Below, one piece after another: positions 43,132 through 63,949 of a DNA stretch of 64,000 nt. Below the pieces are notes generated by a model. It was given only the letters and a program-made list of their open reading frames with translations. It ran no database searches and was not told the origin of the DNA. Both the position numbers and the translations under genes were made by a program. Within the stretch, counting starts at the first letter, position 1, and every line of letters starts with the position of its first letter. Source of the stretch: a virus. Lineage: Duplodnaviria; Caudoviricetes. The DNA lies in IMG/VR virus record IMGVR_UViG_3300047171_000080, positions 520-64,519 of that record, one strand, 5' to 3'.

Positions 43132-45009
43132 TCATCGTTTGCCTTTCGAATTGGGAAAGAGTGCGTCGACGGCGCGCACGCCGCCATCGCTTGTGTACTC
43201 AATGAGTCCAAGGCTGCGCAGCTTGCCGAGATAATTGCGAAAGCCGCCGCCAGTGGTCGACATGCCGAGCCATGACGCGAGATCCGATCGCGTCACCGTT
43301 TTCGGATATGCGCCGACGAGCTCGTGAAGAACGCGCGACTCGGATTTGAGTTTGGACATCCACATCGACACGATCGCGGCGCTCGTGCGCGGCGCCGCCG
43401 CGATCGCGTCGCGCATCATCTCAACGCCCGCATCAGTCAGCGCGACGAGATCGTTGCCCGGATAGTGAATGAGGCCGCCCGTGCGCAGCGAGCCCAGGTA
43501 GTTGCGAAAGCCGCCGCCCGATGCGGAGTAGCCAGCCATGACGGAGACTTGCGTGCGCGACGCCGGCGTCGGGTGAAGCGCGGCGAGCGCATCGAGGATC
43601 TTGGCACCGCCGCCGGAGACGCCGGGCAAATTGAGAGATCGTGGAAGGGTAGACAAGGCAACAGCCGCTGACGATGCGCGCGCTACCCGTTCTGCTCGCA
43701 CCGTCCGGTTCTGTGTTTTCGCGGTCGTCTTTGGAGCCGCACCCTCCGCCGGAGCGACCGGCGAGACGTCGACGCGTACCCGATTCATCTTCTCAAATAT
43801 CTCGTTGAAGACGTCGTTGACGCGGCGCGTTGCGACGCTGAATTCCTTGTCTAATTCCGCGACTAAATGGGTCAATGGCGGCATCACAGCATCTCGTGCC
43901 GACGTAAACGCATCGGCAAGTTTGCGCAACTCGACAACGTCAACGATCGGAACTTTCGTCTCGATCGTTACGACGTCGCAAGAGTGAGCTTCGAGTTCGG
44001 ACACCCGTGCGCGCAGCTTCGCGACAATGTCGGGAGTAGCGGTCGCAATGTCCGGACTTTCGCTCTCGCTCTCGACGTCGTCGGCCGCCATCGCGTCACG
44101 CAGCCGCTCGAGATCGACCGCCGCGAACTGCTTGGGCTCCGCGATCGTTTCGCCGACTTCCGGCGCACGAGACGAATCGAACGTCTCGCGCAGCGCGAAC
44201 CGGTGCTGCTCGATCATGCCGAGCCAGTGGGGCGAGATGAACCACGCCTCGCCGTCGCGCAGTCGCGCGAGCGACGCGAGTACTTCACGTGCGCGATCGG
44301 GCGTCGTCGCGGATCCGAGATACGCCTTGATCTGCTTCTGATCCAGCGGTGAGAACGTCCGCATCGCGATCACGAGCTCGGCCTGCTTAAGCGTACGCTT
44401 CGACTGCTCGGCGGCGCTCTGCGTCGCCGTCTTCAGTCCAATGCCGACGCCGCGGCCGCCGGTGTGTATGTCGGCCAGCGCGATCTCGCAGCGGTTCTCC
44501 GCTTTGGACTGCGACGTTTCGGGTGCGAGTAGATGGACTTCGTCGACGAAAAACGCGAGTGGTTTCTTGCGGCGCGCGTGCAGCTTCATCTTCTCGCGCG
44601 CGAAGTCGGCAACGAACGTGCACCGCTCGTCGCCTTCGAAGGCGGAGAGATCAATGAGCGCGCTTACATTCGCCTCGTAGAGTTCGCGCGCGAGAAGCGC
44701 GCCGCGCGATGCGGAGATCTCGACGTCGGCATGGTGGCCACCGAAGATTGGTATCGGTAGACCCGGGCCGACGCCGTCCGCTGCGGCGCGTAGTCCCCAA
44801 AGGGTGCCTAGCGGGTCGAACGCGTTGAAAACGCCGCCGCACTTTTGCGTCTGCTCGATCATCACGGCGAACGCATTGCTCTTGCCGGCACCGCTCATCC
44901 CAAGCGCGGCGACGCGGCGAGTGACGAAGTCGATCGGGATGTCGAGATCGGACGAAAGGTGCAGAGTTCGGATCGCGGTCGAAGCGCTACTCAACAGCGT
45001 CGCCCGCAT
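43132..45009 (-). CDS. HerA/FtsK-like P-loop ATPase with two C-terminal wHTH-like repeats
   Basis: GMSGAGKS, FDPLG, FFVDEVH, GRGVGIG..ATQ; GGGFRNYLG.LR..GLI occurs twice. Confidence 0.8.
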   Translation of the reverse strand: MRATLLSSASTAIRTLHLSSDLDIPIDFVTRRVAALGMSGAGKSNAFAVMIEQTQKCGGVFNAFDPLGTLWGLRAAADGVGPGLPIPIFGGHHADVEISASRGALLARELYEANVSALIDLSAFEGDERCTFVADFAREKMKLHARRKKPLAFFVDEVHLLAPETSQSKAENRCEIALADIHTGGRGVGIGLKTATQSAAEQSKRTLKQAELVIAMRTFSPLDQKQIKAYLGSATTPDRAREVLASLARLRDGEAWFISPHWLGMIEQHRFALRETFDSSRAPEVGETIAEPKQFAAVDLERLRDAMAADDVESESESPDIATATPDIVAKLRARVSELEAHSCDVVTIETKVPIVDVVELRKLADAFTSARDAVMPPLTHLVAELDKEFSVATRRVNDVFNEIFEKMNRVRVDVSPVAPAEGAAPKTTAKTQNRTVRAERVARASSAAVALSTLPRSLNLPGVSGGGAKILDALAALHPTPASRTQVSVMAGYSASGGGFRNYLGSLRTGGLIHYPGNDLVALTDAGVEMMRDAIAAAPRTSAAIVSMWMSKLKSESRVLHELVGAYPKTVTRSDLASWLGMSTTGGGFRNYLGKLRSLGLIEYTSDGGVRAVDALFPNSKGKR

Positions 45010-45060
45010 CTTGACGGAGCATCTCTGCGACCGCGTTTGGCGGCCATGTTTCCGATTTCT

Positions 45061-45312
45061 TCATGGTAGCTGTGACTCGCGTGGTTTGCACGTTTCGCAA
45101 CCTATCTCGCACCGTTCACACGTGCGAGCCAGAAGATTGTTTTTGATTAGATAGGTGATCGCAGCGTCCCAGCCGCGCATAAAAGCCTCCGGAGCATAGA
45201 AGCCCGGTTCACCGACAACGGAATAATTAGCCGAAATCTCGTTGCGCTCTCTATCGGCGCTTATTTTCTCGACATCATCCCACACGGGTGACGTTTCAAA
45301 TCGGAAACCCAT
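45061..45312 (-). CDS. Hypothetical protein
   Basis: AFMRGWDAA; C-terminal Cys cluster. Confidence 0.45.
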   Translation of the reverse strand: MGFRFETSPVWDDVEKISADRERNEISANYSVVGEPGFYAPEAFMRGWDAAITYLIKNNLLARTCERCEIGCETCKPRESQLP

Positions 45313-45869
45313 CAGGCGATGAACCTCGGCTTCCGTTGCTTCGTGTGACGTTTTTGAGGACGCGCGGACGCGCGCTTCGATGAATTGGCGCGACGCTTGA
45401 GCACCGCGAGCTGTAACGCGCGGATCGTCTCCTCGTCGAAGATCGCGTGAAGCTCGAGTCGGATCTCGATGCGGCGTCCGCGACCGTCTTTAATTGGCGG
45501 CGGTAAGGTGCCGACGGTGACGATCCGATCGTTCCGATACGCGACATTCTCCAGCGCATCGCATACGCTCTTGATGCACGATTGGCCGTCGAATCCGCAG
45601 TCGTAGAGCTGGTACGAAACGGTGACCGCGGCCGATTGCCACGGATCGTGCGGCCAGAGCGGATCCGATACGATCGCGAACCACGCTTCGGACGTCACAC
45701 GATCCTCGAACGCTTTCACGGCCGGATTCGTGAACATCGCTTTGACGCCGTTGCGGAGAACGCCGCGACCGTACTTGCGATTGATGCTTTCGGGATCGCG
45801 AACAGAGAACGTAACGACGATCGGCTCCGGAAGCGCGATCGCGCGCTCTTTCGCTTTCGCATACGTCAT
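45312..45869 (-). CDS. RusA-like Holliday junction resolvase
   Basis: PESIN, D...IKSVCDAL..VAYRND..V motif. Confidence 0.6.
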   Translation of the reverse strand: MTYAKAKERAIALPEPIVVTFSVRDPESINRKYGRGVLRNGVKAMFTNPAVKAFEDRVTSEAWFAIVSDPLWPHDPWQSAAVTVSYQLYDCGFDGQSCIKSVCDALENVAYRNDRIVTVGTLPPPIKDGRGRRIEIRLELHAIFDEETIRALQLAVLKRRANSSKRASARPQKRHTKQRKPRFIA

Positions 45870-46789
45870 CGCGGCATCTCCGAGTACTCGCGTCCGGAAA
45901 GTAATCGTCCGGCTTCGGTTTTTCCAAAACGCCGAACGCGCTCCCATCCCGGATGATAGCGATCGATCAGATCTTCTTCGAGCACCGTGCCGTTGTCGCG
46001 CCGGATCCGCGTTGTCGCGCCCGCGCGATCGACGAACCGGCCATCAGCATGAAGCAAGTGGGTCGCACGGTCGCGATCGCAGACACGCCACGCGCCCCAC
46101 TGTTTGAAAAAGAACGGTATGCCGTGCGCCTCGCAACGATTGCGAACGTCGAGAGCCCACCGCGAATGCATCGGTCGCGCGCCCGGACCGCTCTCGCCAC
46201 CGACGATCACCCAGTCGATGCCGGCGAGATCGACCTTGTCGATCGGACCGAGCATGGGCTCGACGCTCAAAAAGCGCACGGCCGCCGGGGTCTCGCGCAG
46301 CATGTCCGCACGCCACGCATACTCGTTCGATTCGATCGAAACGCCGAGCCAGATGTGCTTTTCGACTCGGTCTTCAAACGCAATCTTTTCGTCGAAATGG
46401 ATCTGCGTAAAGCCGTTCTCATAGATCTTGCGCACGATGCGCCGCATGCGCTCCGGGCGTTTCGTAAGCACCTGATAGGTGTGCCCGTACGGCGTCAGCA
46501 TCTCAAGAAACACGCGCGCAATGAAATCGTCCGGCACGTCTTTGTGAAACAAATCGGACATCGAATTCACGAAAACGACCGACGGCTTGCGCCACGATCT
46601 CGGCTGCGCCAATCGCTCGGGCCGCAGCGTCAAGTCGAAACCGTTTTGGAATGCGTGTCCCGCCACGCCGCGCCACCGTTCTGCAAACGTCTTCGCATAG
46701 CAGTGATCGCAACCGGGCGAAACCTCATGGCACCCCGTTACCACATTCCATGTGCGCTCGGTCCACTCGATCTTCGACTTCGCGCTCAT
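45866..46789 (-). CDS. Phage Gp37/Gp68 (DUF5131) radical-SAM-like protein
   Basis: IEWTERTWN.VTGC..VSPGCDHCYA, FVNSMSDLFH, WVIVGGESG, FFFKQWG. Confidence 0.92.
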   Translation of the reverse strand: MSAKSKIEWTERTWNVVTGCHEVSPGCDHCYAKTFAERWRGVAGHAFQNGFDLTLRPERLAQPRSWRKPSVVFVNSMSDLFHKDVPDDFIARVFLEMLTPYGHTYQVLTKRPERMRRIVRKIYENGFTQIHFDEKIAFEDRVEKHIWLGVSIESNEYAWRADMLRETPAAVRFLSVEPMLGPIDKVDLAGIDWVIVGGESGPGARPMHSRWALDVRNRCEAHGIPFFFKQWGAWRVCDRDRATHLLHADGRFVDRAGATTRIRRDNGTVLEEDLIDRYHPGWERVRRFGKTEAGRLLSGREYSEMPR

Positions 46790-47493
46790 ACGAGCGCCTT
46801 CGATTGCATGAGAGCGTCGAATGCCTGAACTTGTTCGGCGACATGCGCGCGCTCGTACGGCGTCTTCGCAAGTGCGTAGAGAGACGGTAGACCCGCGTCG
46901 ATCGCCTCCCTGATCTCCACTGACTCAGCGTTGCGGCCGCGGCAGTACCACTCGAGCGCGCGCGGCTCGCCCATCTCGACGAGCTTCCCGCCTTTGCCGA
47001 GTCCGTCGTCGAAGACAAAGAAGCTCGACGTGTGCCAGAGCAGCGTGACGCCAGGATTGCGCTCGATCGCGATGCCAGCCGCGTCCCTCGCCCCCGGCAA
47101 CTCCTCTACCACGCTTCCCCGCCTGCGTTTCTCGCGCAAATTGAGAAACGGGCAATTTATCGCGCTCCACCGCGCGCAGTCGACGTGCGACGGCGGCTCC
47201 GACGAAATCCGATTGACGCCGCACATCGGGCCGACGACGAATACGAACTTCTTGCCAAGCTGGTGCCCGCAGACCCAGCAGATCTTTTCACGGATTGCGC
47301 GCGCCCACTTTTTGGGATCCATTGCGCGAAATTCCGGCTTCATCACGACCTGCTGATGGCCGATCGTCGTCGGCACCCACGCGACGAACCAGGGAACCGG
47401 ATAGCCGCGATCGTCGAGGTGCAGCGAGCGCATCATCGGCGGCAGCGGCGTAAGTTCTGACCGCATCTCGCGCGGGCAAACGGCTTCGCGCAC
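46786..47493 (-). CDS. Conserved phage protein with Cys motifs
   Basis: RGYPVPWFV, CWVCG, EPPSHVDCA...CPFL. Confidence 0.65.
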   Translation of the reverse strand: MREAVCPREMRSELTPLPPMMRSLHLDDRGYPVPWFVAWVPTTIGHQQVVMKPEFRAMDPKKWARAIREKICWVCGHQLGKKFVFVVGPMCGVNRISSEPPSHVDCARWSAINCPFLNLREKRRRGSVVEELPGARDAAGIAIERNPGVTLLWHTSSFFVFDDGLGKGGKLVEMGEPRALEWYCRGRNAESVEIREAIDAGLPSLYALAKTPYERAHVAEQVQAFDALMQSKALV

Positions 47494-48224
47494 TACTTGT
47501 CACCCGCCTCATCAAAGATCGACATCTGCCGATCTTTGAGCTCGCCCATGATTCGTAAAGCCATGTGCGAGATGCACTGGATCTTAAGGACTTTCTTTTT
47601 CGTGTGCTTACACTCGCCGCACGTATCGAGGCGTTCGAAGTCGAACATCGCGAGGGCGTTGCACCCAACGCTCTGATCGCTTTCGGGATCAAACCATTCT
47701 TCGTCGCAAAGCTTGAACGTCGTCAACGCCTGCTTTACGCCAAAGATGACCTTCGTGTTCACCGCATACTGCAACGCTTCGAACAGTGCGGGATCCGTGA
47801 TCGTCGGGGGTGCGAGTCGCTTCAGACCTTTGGGTTCGTCATCGCCTTCGGGATCCGCAGCAGCGGCTTTCTTCTTCGAGCGATTCGGTTTGGGTTTTGG
47901 CGAGGTGTCGATCACGGCATCTCTGCCGTCGACCGTCGTCTCGAGCACCGCGCCGGTTTTACCGTCGAGCACATAATTCGGGTGATACGAGCACGTCAGC
48001 ATATGCCCGAGCGTGCTCTTGCATTCGATGCAGTGGCCGTTCGGGCACTCGGCTCCGTGCGGGACACCTTTGGTAGCTCCGCATTGATCGCATTTCTTTG
48101 CGGCGATCGATCGTGACGTGGCGTTAATCGTAAGCGATCGTGACGCGTTGGTTCGCGTCGACGTACTTTTCTTCGCTCGCGGCGGTCTAGCCGAAGTTTT
48201 CCTGCGGGTAGGGCCTTTAGCCAT
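47493..48224 (-). CDS. Basic Zn-finger-rich hypothetical protein
   Basis: Multiple CxxC pairs; GAGGGAG SD. Confidence 0.55.
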   Translation of the reverse strand: MAKGPTRRKTSARPPRAKKSTSTRTNASRSLTINATSRSIAAKKCDQCGATKGVPHGAECPNGHCIECKSTLGHMLTCSYHPNYVLDGKTGAVLETTVDGRDAVIDTSPKPKPNRSKKKAAAADPEGDDEPKGLKRLAPPTITDPALFEALQYAVNTKVIFGVKQALTTFKLCDEEWFDPESDQSVGCNALAMFDFERLDTCGECKHTKKKVLKIQCISHMALRIMGELKDRQMSIFDEAGDK

Positions 48225-48393
48225 TCGTTCTCCCTCGCTGATTGAGATCAGCCACTAACACGTAGATCGCGACGTCTCGGTCGTCGCTCGAAATTCTTGG
48301 AATCGCGACGGTAATGCCGCGGGTGATCAAGGCGGACGCGATCGCGATCGCGTCGGGCATCGAATACCCACCCCCCCCCCCCCCCCCCGTCAT
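48217..48393 (-). CDS. 58-aa ORF with N-terminal poly-Gly encoded by a G18 tract
   Basis: ATGA overlap start; reads in frame through G18 to a TAA overlapping the next gene. Confidence 0.45.
   Translation of the reverse strand: MTGGGGGGGYSMPDAIAIASALITRGITVAIPRISSDDRDVAIYVLVADLNQRGRTNG
48371..48388. repeat. C18 homopolymer (G18 on the coding strand)
   Basis: Seen directly. Confidence 0.9.
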
Positions 48394-48635
48394 AGGATCG
48401 TAAACCCGCGTTTTTCAAACGCCTCGATTATGTCAATGACGATCTCCGGCGCATCGGCTGGAGCAACGCCCACGGTCCGTGCAATCAACAGCACGTCGAT
48501 ACGGCTGAATCTCGCAAGGGCGACACATGAAGAACAGAGCGTGTGCGCGTCGTCCGCCCAGGTGCATCCGCCATCGCACGCTCGGCGATCGGTGCATCTG
48601 CAGATACGGCACTTCCCAGAGGGCGGCGTTCTCAC
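48390..48635 (-). CDS. Cys-rich small protein
   Basis: CRICRCTD..AC.GGC.W...LCS.C motif. Confidence 0.65.
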   Translation of the reverse strand: MRTPPSGKCRICRCTDRRACDGGCTWADDAHTLCSSCVALARFSRIDVLLIARTVGVAPADAPEIVIDIIEAFEKRGFTIL

Positions 48636-49261
48636 GACATCACCGCCTTGACGTCGTCGCCAGCGCACGCTGCCGTCGCGTCGAATAAAGTGATCGCATC
48701 AACCGCACGATCGCTGACCACATGCGCCTTGAGAGGGTCGAACACCGCAAAGTCCTCGATAAATTTACCGACAGTAGCCGGATCAAAGCCGCCGGCGCCG
48801 ACGCGCCGCCGTGTGTAGACCAGCTGACGCGTCTTGAACTCAATCAGCATCGCGACTTTGTTGCCGCGCGCCGGGCGCCTTAGCGTCTCAACATGGATCC
48901 ATGCGATGAGCTTGCGATCGAGAGCAACTAACGCGAGCATATCCGCTCCGTCTAGCGTGATCGCACGATCGCCAGTTCGCGATCGCCGCAGAGCGAAGCG
49001 ATAAACCGGAAAGCAACCGGCTCGTTCGTACATCCGCGTCGTGCATTTCACTTGAACACGGCTAAAACGTCCGTCGCCGAGATCAACGACGATGTCGTAC
49101 GGCTGACCCGCGTCGGCGATCATCGCATTCCAGCCTTGCAAAATAAGATCTGCGCAGACGAGATGCTCCGCAGCCTTGGCGACCTGGAGCGTCGACGATA
49201 AACCGTCCGCACGCTTTGCCTGCGATCTACGAATGCGGATGTCGGCAGGTTCTGGCATCAT
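48632..49261 (-). CDS. PD-(D/E)XK endonuclease (intron-associated type)
   Basis: AEHLV...L...G, PYDIVVD, RVQVK. Confidence 0.75.
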   Translation of the reverse strand: MMPEPADIRIRRSQAKRADGLSSTLQVAKAAEHLVCADLILQGWNAMIADAGQPYDIVVDLGDGRFSRVQVKCTTRMYERAGCFPVYRFALRRSRTGDRAITLDGADMLALVALDRKLIAWIHVETLRRPARGNKVAMLIEFKTRQLVYTRRRVGAGGFDPATVGKFIEDFAVFDPLKAHVVSDRAVDAITLFDATAACAGDDVKAVMS

Positions 49262-50150: not shown

Positions 50151-51533
50151 TCAGACGAACTCCATCTGCGGCTCTTCGACCGGCTCTGGCTGTGGCTCGA
50201 ACCACGGCGGATTTCCGCCCTCGAGCCACATGGATCGCGCCCCGACAAACTCCATGTTGTCGACGACGCCGCTCTCGCCCTCACGCGCGCCGAGCACGAT
50301 GAATTTGCCCTCGCGGCGTTCGTCCGGCGTGCCGTTGGGTCTGGGACGATAGGGCGCGACGATCGCGTGTGCATGGCCTTCGGGGTTGCCCCCATCGCGT
50401 ATATCGCGCATCGTCGGCGGCCCGTTCATGCCTTCGCGGTTCACGTGCTGGACCGCGTGCACAACGAGTCCAAATTCTTTCGCGAGTCGCAGCAGCGATC
50501 GATAGACGAAATCCATGCGGTCGTTTTTGGTCGATCGATCGCCCTTGGCCGCATCGACGTCGCCTAGAAAGTTGATGCCGTCGATGCAGAGCGCACGGAT
50601 CCGCTGCGTGCGCGAGAGCACGCGTAGCTCGCGACGCAGATCCGAGAGCCGCATAACGCTCCGCAGATCGTAGAGATAGAGCGGCCGCTCCGCCATCTTC
50701 TCGATACCGAGTGCGATCTTGGTGAACTCGTATTCGGACAAATCGCCTTCGCGCTGCCGGCGAACCGAAACACCGCCGTAAAGCGCGCCGTAGCGCATCG
50801 AGATCTCCGCTTCTTGCATTTCAAGCGATGCGAGCGCGACGGCGCCGTAGTGCGCGGCGATGAAATCGCAGAGTTGAAACAGATTCGCGCTCTTGCCCGA
50901 CTTTGCGGCCGCTGGCCAGAGCACCATTTCGCCCGGCATGACGGCGCCGATAAGCTTGTTGAGGCGAGGGTACGGCGTCAGGATCGCGTCGCTATCAACG
51001 GTGCCGGTCGAGCGCTCGAGCAAACGCATATAATTCGCTTTAAGCGCGGCGTAGATGTGAACGCCGCCGGTCTTTGGAGCTCCGCGATCGACAGCAGCGG
51101 AGAACGCAGTTTCTGCTTCCGCGATCGCGGCGTCTACGTCCATCTCGCCGTCGAATCCGATCGACGAAATCCGCTGGCCGGCTGCGATGAGATCGCGGAG
51201 TCGAGACTTCTCGCGCACGATGTTGGCGAAATACTCGGCCGTACTCGCATCGCCAAGCGACTCGGCACAGAGCGACGACAGATACGCAAGGCCACCGACG
51301 TGCTCGAGCTTCTGGCGATCGCGCAGTCTTTCCGCGACGCTAATCTTATCGACCGGTTTACTCGCCGTTGCGAGTTCCGTGATCGTGCTCCAAATAGTTT
51401 CATGCACGACGGAATAGAAATCGCGCGGCGCAACGATGTCGACCGCGGCGTCCACTGCTTCACGTGAAACAAGTGCGGCACCAATCGTTGCCATTTCCGA
51501 CTCAAGCGACGACGGCGGAATACGATCGCTCAT
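50151..51533 (-). CDS. dnaB: DnaB-like replicative helicase
   Basis: PPSSLESE N-terminus, SGKS Walker A, SLEM, LAKE, Q.NR, RDGGNPE. Confidence 0.85.
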   Translation of the reverse strand: MSDRIPPSSLESEMATIGAALVSREAVDAAVDIVAPRDFYSVVHETIWSTITELATASKPVDKISVAERLRDRQKLEHVGGLAYLSSLCAESLGDASTAEYFANIVREKSRLRDLIAAGQRISSIGFDGEMDVDAAIAEAETAFSAAVDRGAPKTGGVHIYAALKANYMRLLERSTGTVDSDAILTPYPRLNKLIGAVMPGEMVLWPAAAKSGKSANLFQLCDFIAAHYGAVALASLEMQEAEISMRYGALYGGVSVRRQREGDLSEYEFTKIALGIEKMAERPLYLYDLRSVMRLSDLRRELRVLSRTQRIRALCIDGINFLGDVDAAKGDRSTKNDRMDFVYRSLLRLAKEFGLVVHAVQHVNREGMNGPPTMRDIRDGGNPEGHAHAIVAPYRPRPNGTPDERREGKFIVLGAREGESGVVDNMEFVGARSMWLEGGNPPWFEPQPEPVEEPQMEFV

Positions 51534-51765
51534 GCGATCACTCCGAGCGCGCGTAGATGCTCCACGAGAGCGTCGGCAGCGCGCGCGCGCACGCCCGGGA
51601 TCTGCACGCATGTTCCGCGCGCCTTGTGCGTCCCGATCGCGTTACGGCTCAAAAGTTCCGCGTTGCAATCCGGGCAGTGGACCGCACCAAACTCCGACAG
51701 GCGTTTTTCACGAGCGGCATGATATTGCTGGTGCGCACTACCCGTGCGTCGCATCGCGAGTACGC

Positions 51766-52521
51766 TCATTTCGTCGCGGCCTTCGCGAGCTGCTCGATGC
51801 ACGCGTACACCGCGGGCCCTGCGACTCGCAGATCTCGCACGAGTTGCGGCACGACGAAATTCGTGAGCCGCTTGCGCACGATGTCCGTGTCGCCTTTGTC
51901 GATCGTCGCCTTGAGCGGGCCGCCCGGCATTGCGATCGGATCGGGTTCTTTGGCCGCATGCGTGCCGTTCGCAAGCGTCGGGCCCACGTAGTCCGCCTTG
52001 ATCGTGCAAATTTGCATGCGCAGATCCTCGGCGCGCTTAACGGCCGCCGCGTGCAGCTTTTCGAGCCGTTTCGTCTTGCGATTTTTCGCGGCGGCTTCGC
52101 GCTCTTGGGCGCGTCGGAGTTGCTGCGCCGCGGCGTAGTCGCGTTCGGCCGCAAGCTGCGCGAGCTTGGCTTGCGTCGCCGCGATCCGCGCGTCGTATTT
52201 TTCCTGGATCGTAAGCTTTTGGGCCGCAGTTTTCTTCCCGGAAGTTCCGGGGTTGCGGGCGACGACGACGTCGTTTCCGTGTCCCGCGCTCTTGCCGGCG
52301 AGCGAGATGCCATTCACGGCACACGCCTGTCGGATGCCGCCTTCGGAGCGATCGGAGAAGTGCGCGGCCGCAGCGGAAAAACCGCCCGAGTCTACCAGCT
52401 CGCGGAGTTTCGAAACGCGCTCGTCGTCCCAAAATTTACTCACCGATACCCCCCCCCCCCCGGTGTGGATAAAGTGCGGGAACCATGCGACGATCGCCGC
52501 AAGCAAGACGCCTCGGATCAT
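51766..52521 (-). CDS. Hypothetical protein (Myb/HTH-like region and coiled coil) with a G13 tract near the 5' end
   Basis: FWDDERVSKLREL...DRSEGGIRQ; an alternative GTG start follows the tract. Confidence 0.55.
   Translation of the reverse strand: MIRGVLLAAIVAWFPHFIHTGGGGVSVSKFWDDERVSKLRELVDSGGFSAAAAHFSDRSEGGIRQACAVNGISLAGKSAGHGNDVVVARNPGTSGKKTAAQKLTIQEKYDARIAATQAKLAQLAAERDYAAAQQLRRAQEREAAAKNRKTKRLEKLHAAAVKRAEDLRMQICTIKADYVGPTLANGTHAAKEPDPIAMPGGPLKATIDKGDTDIVRKRLTNFVVPQLVRDLRVAGPAVYACIEQLAKAATK
52449..52461. repeat. C13 homopolymer (G13 on the coding strand)
   Basis: Seen directly. Confidence 0.85.
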
Positions 52522-53447
52522 GCGCGCTGATCCTCGGGCACCGTGTAGGGCAGCCCGTCGATCGAACCGTCGTCCACGCCGCGACGTGCGCCGATGATCG
52601 GCTTCGAATCGCGCGGCGGAAGAAAAGCGACGGCGGTCTTCGCCGACGCCCCGAAAAGCGGTTTGCCGTTTTGCGATAGCCATGCGTCGCAGAATGCTCG
52701 CCACGTATCGGCGACAGAGGCGCCACGAGAGCGAAAGATCGCGAGCGCAGCCACGTAATCAGGCCCATGTTTTTTTTGCGCGTCTGGCGATTTCGCGTTG
52801 CCGAAAGCCGCGAGAAACTTTTGGGCCACGCGCTTGAGCGGCTCGATTTCCTCGGGCAGCATGGCCGGAAGCGACTCTGGCAACAGAGGCGGTTCGAGGC
52901 TTTTTTCCGTTCCGAGCGCGGTAGTTACGCTAGTAACTACCGAAGTAGCGTCAGCTACTTCTCTGTTCTTACTTCTCTGTTCTACCGGGTTACATTGCGT
53001 TACCGTAACGTTACGCCGCGTTACACGTAACGCTTGTGTAACGCCATTCTCGCCGTTACTTGGCGCGTTACCCGATGCGTTACGCTGTAACGCTTTTTGC
53101 TCGCGATGTTTGCGAACGCGTTCTGCGCTGGACGACCTTCTAGGCGTCGTTTGCTCTTCAAAACGGGCCACCATTATGCAGCCGTCCTCACGAATGACCC
53201 AGAGCCCGATGTCGACGAGCTCTTCCAAAATCGATCGCATTCGGGAGCGCTCGACGTACAGATCGTCGGCCAATTCGTCGATCGTAAAGAAGCCGACGCT
53301 GCTCTGAAATGTTCCGACTTCGAAGCCGTCGTCGGCGCATTCTTGGGCCAAAGTGAGCCCTTTGAAGTAGACGAAACCAGCCCGATCGGATACGCGCCTG
53401 AGCCGCTTTGAATGGCGAACGCTAGTCTCGACTTTAACGAACGGCAT
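52518..53447 (-). CDS. Replication initiator/replisome organizer
   Basis: N-terminal wHTH, SAERVRKHR basic helix, internal iterons; upstream of DnaB. Confidence 0.75.
   Translation of the reverse strand: MPFVKVETSVRHSKRLRRVSDRAGFVYFKGLTLAQECADDGFEVGTFQSSVGFFTIDELADDLYVERSRMRSILEELVDIGLWVIREDGCIMVARFEEQTTPRRSSSAERVRKHREQKALQRNASGNAPSNGENGVTQALRVTRRNVTVTQCNPVEQRSKNREVADATSVVTSVTTALGTEKSLEPPLLPESLPAMLPEEIEPLKRVAQKFLAAFGNAKSPDAQKKHGPDYVAALAIFRSRGASVADTWRAFCDAWLSQNGKPLFGASAKTAVAFLPPRDSKPIIGARRGVDDGSIDGLPYTVPEDQRA
52921..53092. repeat. Cluster of GTTAC/GTAAC iterons: putative phage replication origin
   Basis: More than 10 GTTAC/GTAAC half-sites, including palindrome GTAGTTACGCTAGTAACTAC. Confidence 0.7.
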
Positions 53448-54021
53448 GAAAACTGAAAACCATCCTCGGTCATAAGAAGCGAGCTCGCGGCACCGAAATT
53501 TGAAGCATCAGGGCGTCACCGCCGCGCGTATGATCTGCGCGACGAAATAGAGCCCGCAGAGCCCCAGAATCGTCCACTGGATGGCATCGCCGCGAGACAT
53601 CTTGCGCGGCAGACGCGCGGGATGTTCAGACTCGCGCCAGCCCGATCGCCATGTCGCCGGCTGCGGCAACGCGCCGTCCTGGCCACGCTCGTACCGTCGA
53701 CGTTGACCGGCTGCGATCGTCGCGTACGGATGCGCCTTCATCGACCTGATCCTCGCGCTGCGCGGCGCGCCCTATAGAAATCGAGCAACTCGCATAGCGA
53801 GCCGATCATCGGCGTTTCGCCTGCGTTCGCGATAGCGACGAGCCGCGAGCGAAAGCATTCCGGACAGACCGGCCACATCGATATCTCGTCTCGGACCTGT
53901 GAACCCACGGTTTGCGTAGGCACGAAAAGGCATTCGGGCTCGCCGGGCATCGACAGATTCGGTCCCGAGCAAAGAACCGTTCCGCTGCGTATATTTTGCC
54001 GCTGCTCATCTACTAAGATCT

Positions 54022-54297
54022 TCACGCCTCGGCCGCCGCCGTCTCACGCGGCTCAAGCACGATCTGACCGAGCAACGTGCACGTGACACTCGGATTGTTT
54101 TTGACCAAAACGCCAAATGCGACTCCGAACGACTCGGCACTTTCGATCTCCGCCATCGTTTCTGGCGTGACGGGCGTATACGAATAGAGCCCGCTTTCGC
54201 CGGATTTTTTGGGCGGGAACGCGACCTCCATCGTCTGGGTCGCGGCGTCGTATCCGTACTCCGCGATCGCGCGGGAGTTTGCGGGCTTTCTATCCAT
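54022..54297 (-). CDS. KTSC domain protein
   Basis: S.AIAEYGYD.....EVAF...GLYSY..V....AESFG. Confidence 0.8.
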   Translation of the reverse strand: MDRKPANSRAIAEYGYDAATQTMEVAFPPKKSGESGLYSYTPVTPETMAEIESAESFGVAFGVLVKNNPSVTCTLLGQIVLEPRETAAAEA

Positions 54298-55303
54298 GCG
54301 TCCGTCCTTTCAGCCGCTGAAGAAATACGTTGACCGAGCGCATCGATAACCGCCGTAGCTCGTATGTGGTCTCGCCGTCGATCTCAAGCGAGACCGACGC
54401 GATGAGATCCGATGCCTCGGTTTCGGAGAGCTTCGCGCGCTCGATCGCGCGCTCAAGATTGGTCACGACGCCATCTGCGAGCAATCCACCGGAACCGTGA
54501 AGTGCCGCATTATGCGTTGCTGGCGGCCGCTCTTGATCAGCGGGGTACGCCGAAGGTAACGGCAACGCGTTGAGCGCGGCGATGAGCGTTTCGGCTTCGC
54601 GAGCATCGAGCGACTCGAGCTTTGTACTGCCGGTCGCACTGACGGACCGTACGAGCTCTTTCATGCGATCGGACTCGAGCGCGATTTCGCGAGCAAGTGC
54701 GCTCGTTCGGATCTGCGCGCGCTGCCGATCGCTGGGTGGCCCGACCTCTTCGCGGTTTTCTGCGCCGCGCTGCGTCGGCAACGCCTGACCCGAATTATGC
54801 TCGGGACGGCACAGCGACGTTATCGCTTTACCGCCGCCGACGAATGTGATGAGCGTAACGTACCCGAACTTGATCGTGTCGTTCGCGCCTTCGCACATCG
54901 TCGGATCGTCGGTCGGCTGACCGCCGCGCGAGTACTTCACTTTCGGCGGCATCGTCTTGCCGTGTTTTTTCTCTTCGCCGAAGTCCCGGCGCTTGTACAA
55001 GTCGCCGCGGTAGTAGACGCCTTCGCCTTCGCCATCGCGAAACGTCACGTGCTTCGCACCGATCAAAGACCAATCGAACGTCTCGTGCATCGCGTACGGC
55101 AGCGTGTAGCCGCCGCGCGGGATCTCCGCGCCCGACGACCACCCGCGCGCGCCGAACTGCCGCATCGCAGCGTACGCATCGTCGATGCTCGCTACTTCAA
55201 CGAACAGCTCCATGCCGATCTGATTGACCACGCGCAGCGTCGCGCGGCGCGCATTCGCGTTGCGCAGATCGCGGACGTTGTCCGCAACTTCCGGCGCGCT
55301 CAC
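54290..55303 (-). CDS. ddrB: DdrB-like ssDNA-binding/annealing protein with C-terminal extension
   Basis: GW.SG.IP.GGY.LP....FDWSLIGA, Y.RR, P..VKYSRG, YVTL..F.GG match Deinococcus DdrB as recalled. Confidence 0.8.
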   Translation of the reverse strand: MSAPEVADNVRDLRNANARRATLRVVNQIGMELFVEVASIDDAYAAMRQFGARGWSSGAEIPRGGYTLPYAMHETFDWSLIGAKHVTFRDGEGEGVYYRGDLYKRRDFGEEKKHGKTMPPKVKYSRGGQPTDDPTMCEGANDTIKFGYVTLITFVGGGKAITSLCRPEHNSGQALPTQRGAENREEVGPPSDRQRAQIRTSALAREIALESDRMKELVRSVSATGSTKLESLDAREAETLIAALNALPLPSAYPADQERPPATHNAALHGSGGLLADGVVTNLERAIERAKLSETEASDLIASVSLEIDGETTYELRRLSMRSVNVFLQRLKGRTHG

Positions 55304-56082
55304 GCCGACGCCTCGACGGTTTTCATCGGAGCGGACACGGCGTGTGGCTTGATCGTCAGCTTGTCGCGGCCGCGCGCACGTGGCATCGCGGCTTTGATCG
55401 CGGTCTCCACGGCGGTTCCGGTATGCTTCTTCGCGATCCCCATGATCGCGACCGAAGATCCCGGCGTGATTACTTCCGGACGTCGATGCGCCGCGACCGT
55501 AATGGTCACGGACGTGTCGCCGGGGGCGCCGGCGAGCGCGCGCGCAAGCTCCTTGACCGTCGTCGTGAACGTGCGTTCCTCGACGTCGGCAGCGGGCGCG
55601 ACCGTGACAAGTTTCGCGGCCTCGTCCGGCGACAGATCGCGAGCGATCAGCTGCAGCGAATGGACGTCCGGCCGATACGCCTCGAACGTGCTTTCCAATT
55701 CGAAGAGAACGGTCGGATCTGGGATCGAGACCTTCGTAACGTCCGCGGCGTCGCGACGTTTCTGCAGGCGGCGCATGACGCCATCCTCGCCGATGCGGTT
55801 GACCCAGTCGATCGGTGCGATGTACTTCGCCAGTCGGTCCTCTCTGACCGCACGAGCTTCTTTTACGATGCTCTTGAGGCGATCGTCATCGATCGAGTCG
55901 ATGAGCGCGTCGAACTGCTCGCGGCTAGCGAGAAGCGCGTCGCGTTCGGCTGGCGACGCGTTCGAGACGCGGAACAGCCACATGAGGTTGGCGACGTCTA
56001 CCTTGAGCGGATCCGCCGCCAATTTGGCGACGATGCGCGCGGTGTCGGTAAGGACGACCGGTGCGAGCGTGCTATCGGACAT
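55300..56082 (-). CDS. Hypothetical recombination-module protein
   Basis: Coupled directly upstream of the DdrB-like gene. Confidence 0.55.
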   Translation of the reverse strand: MSDSTLAPVVLTDTARIVAKLAADPLKVDVANLMWLFRVSNASPAERDALLASREQFDALIDSIDDDRLKSIVKEARAVREDRLAKYIAPIDWVNRIGEDGVMRRLQKRRDAADVTKVSIPDPTVLFELESTFEAYRPDVHSLQLIARDLSPDEAAKLVTVAPAADVEERTFTTTVKELARALAGAPGDTSVTITVAAHRRPEVITPGSSVAIMGIAKKHTGTAVETAIKAAMPRARGRDKLTIKPHAVSAPMKTVEASA

Positions 56083-56366
56083 TGCGGTCGCTCACGATCG
56101 CGCGCAACACCACATAGGTGCCGATGCAGACGAGAAGTATGGTCACGACGCCGATAACAATCGCGGCGTTGACGTCGGAAGCGTTGCTGAGGTCGCTCAT
56201 ACGTTCGACTCCAAACGTAGTTCGTCGCTGGCATCGGTGGTAAGCCGATAGAGCTGGACCACAAGGATCTTTGCAGCCACGGCGTTGGGAGCGTCGGTTT
56301 CTGCGAACTCAAGCATCGCCGACGCGCGACGCAGTTCGGACGCGATGTCTTTACGTGTTCTCGCGG

Positions 56367-58267: not shown

Positions 58268-58325
58268 AGGACGACTGTACGTCCTAGCGGGCCATAATGT
58301 CAAGTATGTCGGACGAATTCGTCCG
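58268..58325. promoter_or_regulatory. Immunity region: leftward promoter and GGACG-n-CGTCC operators
   Basis: AGGACGACTGTACGTCCT (58268-85) and CGGACGAATTCGTCCG (58310-25). Confidence 0.6.
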
Positions 58326-58347
58326 GCGGCCACGTCACAGTTACGTC

Positions 58348-58767
58348 ATGGACGAGACAGATGCGATTCGCGCGCGTGTTGCGGCGTCGTTATCGGCCTG
58401 GATGGCCCATGCTCGACTTAGTCCGACCGATCTCAACAAACGAACGAGTATTTCGCGCGATACCATCTACGCAATTAAGGACGGTAAGCGGCTGCCCGAA
58501 ATCGAAAATTTGGCGCTGCTTGCAAAAGAACTCGGGACTTCCGCCGGTGCGATCCTCGATGGTGTTATGCCTTCAGCTAACTTGCCTCTTGGCGCCGTCC
58601 CGTCGGCTTCGGAACTTCGACTAGCCGTAGCCCGGGCCGGAGAAGTGAAGGGGCTGTCGGACGATCTTGATGGCCTAATTCTAGCGCTTCAAGACGTTCT
58701 AAACGATCTCGGCGTGCAGCGCAACTTACGTGAATTGATTCGAGCGAAGCGGCTAATCGCTGGATAG
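58348..58767 (+). CDS. CI-like XRE repressor (no peptidase domain)
   Basis: LSPTDL...ISRDTIYAIKDGKRLPEIENL..LAKELG; divergent from the Cro-like gene. Confidence 0.8.
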   Translation: MDETDAIRARVAASLSAWMAHARLSPTDLNKRTSISRDTIYAIKDGKRLPEIENLALLAKELGTSAGAILDGVMPSANLPLGAVPSASELRLAVARAGEVKGLSDDLDGLILALQDVLNDLGVQRNLRELIRAKRLIAG

Positions 58768-62568: not shown

Positions 62569-63720
62569 TCACGCCGCCTTCTTCGGCCGATTTTTCCCAC
62601 GCATACGCTTGGGTTGCGCGACGAAGTCGCGCGTGACGCCGAGTAGATCTCCCATGCGCGCGGCCGCGGCTTTCCCCATGCCAGGCATCGTGTGCGCATA
62701 CAGATCCAACGTGACTCGCACGCTCGAGTGCCCGAGCAGCTCGGAAACAACCTTCGGGTTCTCGCCGGCACCAAGTAGCAGCGTGGCGCACGTGTGCCGC
62801 AGATCGTGGAAGCGAACACGGCGGACGCCCGCGCGCTCGAGCGCCGGAAAGAAATGTCGGCGCTCGAAGTTCGATGCGTGCAGCGCGGTCCCGCGATCGG
62901 TGCAGAACACGAGGTTCGTCTTGGCTTCGAGCGCGCGCCAGCGATGCCGATGTGCCCGTAGCTCGTCGATAACGGTCGCTGGCACGTCGATCTTGCGCTT
63001 CGACGTCTTGGACTTCGGCCGCCCGAACGTCCGGTCGTCTTTGAGCGCTTGGCGCACAAGCATCGTGCCGGCGTCGAGGTTTACTTCGCGCCAGTGCAAT
63101 CCGGAGATCTCGCCGAGTCGAAGACCCGTCGCGATCGCGAGATGGAAGACGGCGCGGTAGCGATCGTCGGCGACAGCCGCGAGCAGCGCGCGCGCTTCGT
63201 CCGCCGTTAGGAAGTCGATCTCGCGTTCTTCTTTCGGCCGCGTGACTCCGACGATCGGACTCGCAACGAGGATGCGGTCTTGCTTGACCGCCCAGTTGAG
63301 GACGACGCGCAACGTGTCGTACGCGACGCGTACGGGTGACTCGCTCTTGCCGTCTGCACGAAGCCGATCGAGCGCCGCGATGATCTGGCGATGCGTGATG
63401 CTGTCGAGTCGGATGTGGCCGAGCGACGGTTCGACGAGCGCCATGCCGTATCGGTAGTTTCGAATCGTTTTCGCTTCACGCACGCGGGCGCGCTGCGCGA
63501 TCCACGACTCGAAGTACTCGGCAAGCTTCGGTGCGGCTTCCACGCCCTTGCGCTGGCCGTATTTCGCCTGCAGCTCGGCGAGTTTCTTACGCGCCTCGGG
63601 CATCGTGTCCGCGCGAGCGGTTACGCGACGTCGTTTGCCGTCGACGGACCCGAGCGAGATGCGAACTTCGTAGCGACCGTCGGAGCGCGGGCCGTGGATC
63701 GATCCCGATCCCCAAGGCAT
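62569..63720 (-). CDS. int: Tyrosine recombinase (phage integrase)
   Basis: TGLRLGEI, PKSK, FHDLRH, LGHS and YAH catalytic motifs; GSGSI arm-binding N-terminus. Confidence 0.95.
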   Translation of the reverse strand: MPWGSGSIHGPRSDGRYEVRISLGSVDGKRRRVTARADTMPEARKKLAELQAKYGQRKGVEAAPKLAEYFESWIAQRARVREAKTIRNYRYGMALVEPSLGHIRLDSITHRQIIAALDRLRADGKSESPVRVAYDTLRVVLNWAVKQDRILVASPIVGVTRPKEEREIDFLTADEARALLAAVADDRYRAVFHLAIATGLRLGEISGLHWREVNLDAGTMLVRQALKDDRTFGRPKSKTSKRKIDVPATVIDELRAHRHRWRALEAKTNLVFCTDRGTALHASNFERRHFFPALERAGVRRVRFHDLRHTCATLLLGAGENPKVVSELLGHSSVRVTLDLYAHTMPGMGKAAAARMGDLLGVTRDFVAQPKRMRGKNRPKKAA

Positions 63721-63761
63721 CTTTTTCACGCGCCCGTTTTGCGCCCAAGTTGGTCGTACGC

Positions 63762-63785
63762 CTGCGATTTCTGCGATTTCTGCGA
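63762..63785. repeat. Tandem 9-bp CTGCGATTT repeats in the att arm region
   Basis: Copies at 63762 and 63771, partial copy at 63780. Confidence 0.6.
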
Positions 63786-63840
63786 CATTTCGGAGCGCTC
63801 GAATTTCTGTGTTACAAAATCCCACAAACGCCCGTAGAAT

Positions 63841-63873: not shown

Positions 63874-63949
63874 TGGCTCCCGAATCTGGACTCGAACCAG
63901 AGACCCGCTGATTAACAGTCAGCTGCTCTACCAACTGAGCTATTCGGGA
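63874..63949 (-). tRNA. tRNA-Asn (GTT), probable integration target
   Basis: 76-nt cloverleaf TCCCGAATAGCTCAGTTGGTAGAGC...CTGTTAA...GGTTCGAGTCC...GCCA. Confidence 0.96.

Follow-up and report, generated by a model that had tools for sequence, protein, structure and literature searches.

A divergent DdrB-family protein in the early operon of an uncultured prophage, a candidate phage single-strand annealing protein

We analyzed a stretch of 64,000 nucleotides (hereafter, the window) from a virus of the class Caudoviricetes (Duplodnaviria), corresponding to positions 520 to 64,519 of the IMG/VR record IMGVR_UViG_3300047171_000080, and focused on one gene whose product resembles DdrB, a Deinococcus protein that binds single-stranded DNA (ssDNA). 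By its sequence and predicted fold, this product is a true but divergent member of the DdrB family. It is probably, though by no means certainly, a phage ssDNA-binding and strand-annealing protein that occupies the position of the recombinase and carries a partner-docking tail. We favor this role of single-strand annealing protein (SSAP) because the protein has a DdrB domain, its gene is coupled to others in an early operon, and the record has no other recognizable SSAP or ssDNA-binding protein (SSB). According to two papers, Deinococcus DdrB assembles into pentameric rings, which bind ssDNA and, paired face to face, anneal strands (PMC3834827, PMC13110880). In the latter paper, DdrB is one of four SSAP families and is "found in bacteria", and only the RAD52 family is assigned to phages (PMC13110880). 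The DdrB family is thus known in itself, and what is new here is the architecture of the protein, its regulation, and its biological setting.

The initial annotation of the window, made from the sequence alone, had recognized a succession of DdrB motifs in the translation of this gene. They are all there and in the order given: GWSSGAEIPRGGYTLP, FDWSLIGA, YKRR, VKYSRG, and YVTLITFVGG, then PPSDRQ...LESLDAREAETLI. The search with the Pfam profile of DdrB (PF12747) upheld the assignment, with an E-value of 4.2e-26, a score of 91.8 bits for a cut-off of 25, and an alignment of residues 24-156 with positions 3-131 of the 132 in the profile. This family, which scored 94.1 bits in a six-frame profile search, is the sole Pfam match of the protein, and no model of PHROGs or NCBIfam matched it. 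When we searched all PDB sequences with phmmer, we retrieved only DdrB (4exw_A, E 4.1e-24; 4hqb_A/4noe, E 3.7e-18). The structure gives the same picture. We modeled the protein with AlphaFold2, using an alignment of 87 family sequences and no templates, and obtained a predicted local distance difference test (pLDDT) score above 90 across residues ~21-170. The comparison of this model with the PDB by Foldseek resulted in 15 matches at E <= 0.001, every one a DdrB chain. The best of them, 4noe_E, had an E-value of 9.7e-14, a template modeling (TM) score of 0.90 normalized by the target, and a root-mean-square deviation (rmsd) of 2.0, and the first match beyond these 15 had an E-value of 0.27. 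Over the DdrB chains of 4noe, 4hqb, and 4exw, the target TM-score ranged from 0.87 to 0.93 and the rmsd from 1.7 to 2.9 Å. Hence, the N-terminal domain is homologous to that of DdrB from D. radiodurans and D. geothermalis (4HQB, 4NOE, 4EXW), with 33-35% identity in structural alignment. The fold of 4EXW and 4HQB has been described as new among ssDNA-binding proteins. The profile match, the fold, a G+C content of 0.75 at third codon positions, and the conservation of the frame in relatives all speak against the open reading frame being an artifact of high-GC DNA, an explanation that we rejected. We also rejected a kinship with the DdrB of phage P1 (Dar system), an unrelated protein that shares only the name.

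Nine ssDNA-binding residues of D. radiodurans DdrB have been tested by mutagenesis, namely R64, W66, R83, R85, K94, K102, K108, R132, and K135, as given in PMC3834827. We mapped them on the phage protein through the phmmer alignment to PDB sequences, verified the offset at H80, A81, and G106, and counted residues in the family columns of 87 sequences. Four of the nine positions still have a lysine or an arginine. Two are kept as such, R85 as R106 (invariant, 87/87) and K102 as K123 (K in 69/87), and two are replaced conservatively, R83 by K104 (K in 53/87) and R64 by K84 (R or K in 60/87). Unlike in Deinococcus, the equivalents of W66, K94, K108, and R132 are lost, being V86 (aromatic in 41/87), G115, Q129 (K or R in 67/87), and V155 (R or K in 61/87), respectively. 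The ninth, K135, corresponds to G158, which is adjoined by K159. The invariant or nearly invariant residues of the family are all present (G82, R106, FDW, KYSRG, and YVTL..F.G). The alignment thus suggests that the core of the putative DNA face is retained (R106, K123, and the YSRG motif) and that part of the contact set is lost.

As in Deinococcus DdrB, the domain is followed by a disordered region. Unlike Deinococcus DdrB, the phage protein then continues with ~145 extra residues that form a helical C-terminal module. Its helices are predicted at residues 192-202, 212-221, 234-246, 275-290, 294-308, and 321-336, with a pLDDT of ~95 at residues 211-250 and a second disordered stretch at 257-275. 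It had been proposed that this tail resembles the C-termini of phage annealing proteins, a likeness for which we found no support, since the tail has no match in Pfam, PHROGs, or NCBIfam. An exhaustive HMMER search of 1.84 billion representative sequences found the module only in three proteins: P0003, P0004 (in part), and P0031. The first, of 330 residues, is 48% identical to the phage protein over its full length. P0031, of 318 residues, aligns with residues 166-336 only (E 7.5e-24), and its 150 N-terminal residues are not DdrB-like. Neither Pfam nor PHROGs gave a match for this N-terminus. Its nearest neighbors in a protein language model are viral clusters of ~140 residues, and in one of these clusters 27% of the members carry DUF669. 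The single-sequence structure model of P0031 is unusable (mean pLDDT of 34), and the identity of its N-terminus and the link to DUF669 stay a lead. A word-indexed search of 5.8 billion clusters, with either the whole phage protein or its region 186-337, returned only the cluster of the query.

The tails of the DdrB family are in general diverse. Among the 102 members with a complete end of the domain, 43 have tails of at most 30 residues and 50 have tails longer than 60. The latter split into 22 unrelated BLAST clusters, which indicates that DdrB-family tails are modular. Some of these tails have a characteristic tip. Twenty-one of the 102 members, including P0005, P0006, P0011, P0012, P0015, P0018, and P0021, end with two alanines (...VAA, ...GAA, or ...RAA), an ending that is not present in the protein of the window and that we presume to be reminiscent of ssrA-like C-terminal degrons or of a conserved docking tip. 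The long-tailed member P0009 ends with an acidic tip that contains Pro-Phe. We take it to resemble the partner-binding tip of bacterial SSB, which would fit an SSB-like recruitment in part of the family.

The gene lies in a prophage. The record has 64.5 kb, with a completeness estimate of 57 by CheckV, and its structural genes include those of the terminase, the tail sheath, and the tape measure. It is a myovirus-like prophage of an uncultured bacterium, integrated at a tRNA-Asn (Table 1). Its minus-strand operon comprises, in this order, small early genes, a gene of 260 codons, the DdrB-like gene, a KTSC-domain gene, two small genes, the initiator or DnaD-like gene, and dnaB. It then continues with a PD-(D/E)XK nuclease gene, a DUF5131 gene, a weak RusA-like gene, and a gene for a HerA-like ATPase. 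The DdrB-like gene is coupled on both sides. The GTG with which it starts shares bases with the TGA stop of the preceding gene (GTGA), and a GAGG lies 7 nt ahead of this start. At the 3' end, its last 8 nt overlap the start of the KTSC-domain gene. The initial annotation had placed it in the early module ahead of the initiator, and three small genes indeed separate the two. This position, between regulatory and replication genes, is that of Redbeta/RecT, Erf, Sak, and Sak4 in other phages.

Table 1. Position in the window of the DdrB-like gene, the parts of its product, and the neighboring features
Feature	Coordinates	Strand	Description or evidence
DdrB-like gene	54290..55303	(-)	337 aa, GTG start
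N-terminal DdrB domain, residues ~21-170	54794..55243	(-)	Pfam, model pLDDT >90, Foldseek
Disordered linker, residues ~171-190	54734..54793	(-)	pLDDT <50 at 172-176 and 178-188
C-terminal helical module, residues ~191-337, ~145 aa	54293..54733	(-)	Model and HMMER
260-aa gene upstream, in translational coupling with the DdrB-like gene	55300..56082	(-)	No family match
KTSC-domain gene, 91 aa, downstream	54022..54297	(-)	Pfam PF13619, E 2.5e-9
Replication initiator / DnaD-like helicase loader	52518..53447	(-)	PHROGs 9474, 3926, 2447, 186
DnaB-type replicative helicase	50151..51611	(-)	Pfam DnaB and DnaB_C; PHROG 19, E 2.7e-56
PD-(D/E)XK nuclease	48632..49261	(-)	Pfam PDDEXK_5, 29 bits for a cut-off of 26.1
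Weak RusA-like gene, possible junction resolvase	45312..45947	(-)	21 bits, below the cut-off of 22.8; E 5e-4
XRE-type repressor, oriented divergently to the early operon	58297..58767	(+)	PHROGs 4583, 8, 4
Tyrosine integrase, prophage end	62569..63825	(-)	PHROG 1, E 3.6e-78
tRNA-Asn (GTT), beside the integrase, attachment site	63874..63949	(-)	ARAGORN

The claim that no other recombinase or SSB is visible stood up to a six-frame search of the 64.5-kb record. SSB (PF00436), RecT, ERF, Rad52_Rad22, AAA_24 (Sak4), and YqaJ had no match at E <= 0.1, and the same searches did give matches in control genomes. Hence, the protein differs from the SSAPs of the Rad52 superfamily and from Sak4 in having no match to RecT, ERF, Rad52_Rad22, or AAA_24, in having the fold of DdrB only, and in lacking an adjacent exonuclease. 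In this operon, the only candidate for an end-resection partner would be the PD-(D/E)XK nuclease. Past dnaB, the genes at 43132-49261 (minus strand) may form a recombination and processing toolkit. Among them, the DUF5131 gene matches PHROG 2045 (E 3e-100), and the HerA-like ATPase also has a weak match to a PHROG of the large terminase.

The initial annotation repeated that DdrB is usually regarded as specific to Deinococcus, as stated in PMC6300522. This stands for cultured replicons. Two different DdrB queries matched none of 50,697 records of isolated phages, and the 11 matches among 72,556 plasmid records are all in Deinococcota (9 Deinococcus, 1 Oceanithermus, and 1 Allomeiothermus). A pattern-limited scan of species genomes gave 23 loci, 21 of them titled Deinococc*, plus loci L006 and L021. 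Of the 301 Deinococcota genomes that we sampled, 121 have a match to PF12747, typically at ~200 bits and with up to 4 copies. The statement fails for uncultured viral and metagenomic DNA. An exhaustive HMMER search identified 117 representative clusters at E <= 0.001 and 89 at 1e-10, including P0031 and the cluster of the query itself. Among ~2.9 million IMG/VR contigs, five alignment-based scans revealed 8 distinct contigs beyond the record of the window, none of which had surfaced in a scan with the single protein. The only match in BFVD at E <= 0.001 (E 1.1e-4, probability of 0.98) is A0A6J5MLY4, a protein of an uncultured Caudovirales phage that was named automatically 'Single-stranded DNA binding protein DdrB-like'. 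With 293 residues it is likewise longer than Deinococcus DdrB, and it superposes poorly on our model (TM-score of ~0.2, rmsd of 22). Databases thus already attach a DdrB-like label to one phage protein or more. We found no publication on A0A6J5MLY4. The literature that we searched, in the form of listings and the first lines of abstracts, held no paper on a phage-borne DdrB of the Deinococcus type, and most matches concerned the unrelated DdrB of P1.

A survey of the neighborhoods had been suggested as a check, and it places the DdrB-domain genes of the 8 further IMG/VR contigs amid genes of DNA metabolism, such as those of Prim-Pol, helicases, an initiator, DnaB, and a DNA methylase. In L002, a 97% complete record, and in the metagenome locus L028, ddrB is followed by a Prim-Pol gene and a helicase gene. 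In L003, it is followed by the initiator and by a dnaB split by an intein that contains a LAGLIDADG domain (L003:14253-16910). In L056, a relative of the initiator is found ~1.2 kb downstream, and L051 has an integrase, early genes, ddrB, and dnaB in the same arrangement as the window. Finally, in L004 and three metagenome copies, the gene stands between a tail-fiber-like gene and an N6/N4 DNA methylase gene. We compared eight proteins of the early operon and the C-terminal module with the six-frame translations of the DdrB loci by phmmer, and obtained relatives for the initiator only, which are encoded downstream of ddrB in both L003 and L056 (E 3e-15 and 2e-11). In terms of co-occurrence, the 8 viral records have no RecT, no Rad52, and no AAA_24 over the cut-off. 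ERF is found in one, a 114-kb record in which it lies ~70 kb away from the DdrB-domain gene, and SSB in two.

The phage-borne gene also differs from chromosomal ddrB in that it belongs to an early replication operon and has no operator of the type of the radiation/desiccation response motif (RDRM). We searched for RDRM-like sites in 37 loci and in the window with a degenerate probe, because real sites are imperfect and a strict scan for the 17-nt palindrome matched nowhere. We started from an assumed consensus and validated it by the fact that it recurs exactly ahead of chromosomal ddrB. In twelve loci of the chromosomal type, a site without mismatch lies 38-120 nt ahead of the domain, and 0-1 of 200 shuffled sequences were as good. 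In 4 further loci, the site has 1 mismatch. The best candidate in the 300 nt upstream of the gene in the window has 2 mismatches, and 39/200 shuffles equaled it; the 3-kb early region did no better (171/200). The 8 viral loci have no site above chance upstream. Since such sites are missing upstream of the phage copies, these are not members of the DdrO/IrrE regulon. In the reading that we favor, the gene in the window is under phage control instead. The same absence of sites above chance was observed in a second group of Deinococcus ddrB (L016-L018, L023, and L025-L027). These share a different downstream neighbor (cluster c5), some of them are on a second chromosome or plasmid, and they look like paralogues of the mobile-element type beside the copy of the regulon.

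To place the phage protein within the family, we made a quick maximum-likelihood reconstruction from 146 domain sequences, with 10 short rows dropped. In this tree, the protein groups with P0003 and further metagenomic proteins that have long tails, in no starred clade. The named Deinococcales are scattered over several places, and phage L002 is just outside the main clade of chromosomal Deinococcus. As the tree is unrooted and weakly supported (22 of its 140 inner branches are starred), it does not reveal whether phages passed the gene to Deinococcus or the reverse. One metagenome contig carries two tandem DdrB-domain genes (L034:2-933), of 125 residues (cut by the end of the contig) and 152 residues, which belong to different sub-branches of the Deinococcus-type clade.

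How would such a protein work? By analogy with Deinococcus DdrB, it would assemble into rings through its DdrB domain after induction or infection. The rings may coat ssDNA at forks or where ends have been resected, and they could then pair complementary strands without ATP, in recombination-dependent replication, in end joining or circularization, and in the repair of the phage genome. The C-terminal module, held by a flexible linker, would most likely dock a partner specific to the phage or to the host. The C-terminal parts of Redbeta and SSB dock partners. With an N-terminal domain expected to bind DNA and oligomerize and a C-terminal module, the layout is like that of phage SSAPs, for which ATP-independent annealing would be expected.

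Several observations weigh against an annealing role. Of the nine ssDNA-binding residues tested in D. radiodurans, five are lost, including W66, the main stacking residue. There is no adjacent exonuclease, as YqaJ has no match in the record and the only nuclease candidate is 5 kb downstream. The coupled gene of 260 codons has no nuclease signature and no match in Pfam, PHROGs, or NCBIfam, nor did we find another cluster for it in the word-indexed search or a relative beside other DdrB genes. Relatives from other runs, ~92% identical, do cover this gene, and a predicted complex between its product and the C-terminal module scored 0.00 for a mark of 0.32, which is evidence neither way. An adjacent exonuclease partner is not universal among phage SSAPs. 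The absence of another SSAP from the nine records counts for little, as most are incomplete (CheckV 43-97%), and many phages encode no SSAP. Finally, SSB is absent from 6 of the 8 other viral records, as it is from this one.

The latter point fits a second explanation, that the protein is an SSB of the replication machinery and not a recombinase. The DdrB-fold domain, the linker, and a docking C-terminus would then replace the OB-fold SSB at the phage fork. We regard this as possible, with odds clearly below even. PF00436 is missing from the record of the window and from the 6 others, the gene is just upstream of those of the initiator and DnaB, and the succession of a domain, a disordered linker, and a C-terminal module mirrors SSB. 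Moreover, the first description of DdrB presented it as an alternative SSB, according to a title cited in PMC10140301. However, a canonical SSB and a DdrB-domain gene are found together in 2 of the 8 records. Hence, DdrB can coexist with SSB, which suits an annealing protein better than a substitute for SSB. Deinococcus itself has a separate ssb beside ddrB (PMC3739723), and the documented special activity of DdrB is annealing (PMC13110880). P0031, which joins the same module to another N-terminus, would also fit the substitution of SSB, with its DUF669 neighbor cluster as a lead only, but this link is merely putative, given an N-terminus without Pfam or PHROG match and an unusable model.

It is improbable that the DdrB fold was recruited for another task on ssDNA, such as the unwinding of the origin, the loading of the helicase, or the protection of injected ends from nucleases or defense systems, with a specificity given by the C-terminal module. 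The loss of stacking and basic residues (W66 to V, K108 to Q, and R132 to V), the high variability of the tails in the family (50/102 above 60 residues, in 22 unrelated clusters), and the proximity of the initiator and helicase genes would be in line with it, but there is no positive evidence for such a task and the invariant core of the ssDNA face is kept (R106, K123, and the YSRG motif). Least probable of all is a lysogenic-conversion gene taken from a host that would raise the tolerance of lysogens to desiccation or DNA damage. Deinococcus DdrB contributes to the recovery from radiation and desiccation, and the only runs with the full stretch are labeled moss metagenome. Moss is a habitat prone to desiccation, but these runs probably come from the source itself and are not independent evidence. 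Against this reading, the gene is in an early lytic operon, translationally coupled to both neighbors and in the orientation of the replication genes, and not in an accessory region by the integrase. It has no RDRM-like operator upstream (2 mismatches; 39/200 shuffles), and its 92 bits, against typically ~200 for chromosomal DdrB of Deinococcota with the same Pfam model, indicate that any capture was not recent.

If the protein is an annealing protein, as we favor, a broader and more tentative scenario can be outlined, to which we give less credence than to the annealing role itself. The ring annealases of the DdrB type may be a separate, unrecognized family of phage recombinases, spread thinly across uncultured temperate phages, including those of hosts other than Deinococcus, and equipped with swappable C-terminal docking modules. 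The chromosomal ddrB of Deinococcus would be a domesticated copy that was put under the control of RDRM/DdrO. If this were true, a structurally distinct annealase would be added to the repertoire of phage recombination, and the extra copies of ddrB without RDRM on the plasmids and second chromosomes of Deinococcus would have a natural explanation. The origin of a hallmark gene of radiation resistance would become testable. Such proteins would also be candidates for recombineering in bacteria that are high in GC or hard to engineer, and from their modular tails one could learn how annealases connect to different partners. Should the protein merely substitute for SSB, the consequence would be more modest, the replacement of a fold in a known role.

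We then considered the host. The closest TerL of an isolated phage is at most 27% identical to that of the prophage and the closest DnaB 31%, with mixed hosts. The tRNA-Asn region has matches in 300 of the 301 sampled Deinococcota genomes, of just 51-57 nt (best 95%), and neither the whole 76-nt gene nor its flank matched any of the 301. Because these matches never exceed 57 nt, the host is probably outside the sampled Deinococcota. The whole stretch occurs only in runs labeled moss metagenome, with no RNA run among those listed; they probably stem from the source and thus give no independent support.

Related sequences from four other runs show how the gene varies. Two contigs, X3 (54,465 nt) and X5 (16,675 nt), span positions 54001-56100 with 168 and 169 differences, respectively, and 4 gaps each, i.e., ~92% identity, and two further studies contribute shorter pieces with a likeness of 90-97%. 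The indels within the DdrB-like gene of X3 and X5 are solely at 54751-54781 (linker residues ~174-184) and consist of two 1-base insertions and two 1-base deletions, with no net change in length. These pairs of +1 and -1 indels re-frame ~8-10 codons of the linker. That they cancel within the linker suggests that its sequence is free to vary. Among 40 of the 327 rows of differences, all close to the gene's 3' end, 6 of the 7 substitutions inside the reading frame are at third codon positions. The reading frame of the DdrB-like gene is thus conserved in these ~92% relatives.

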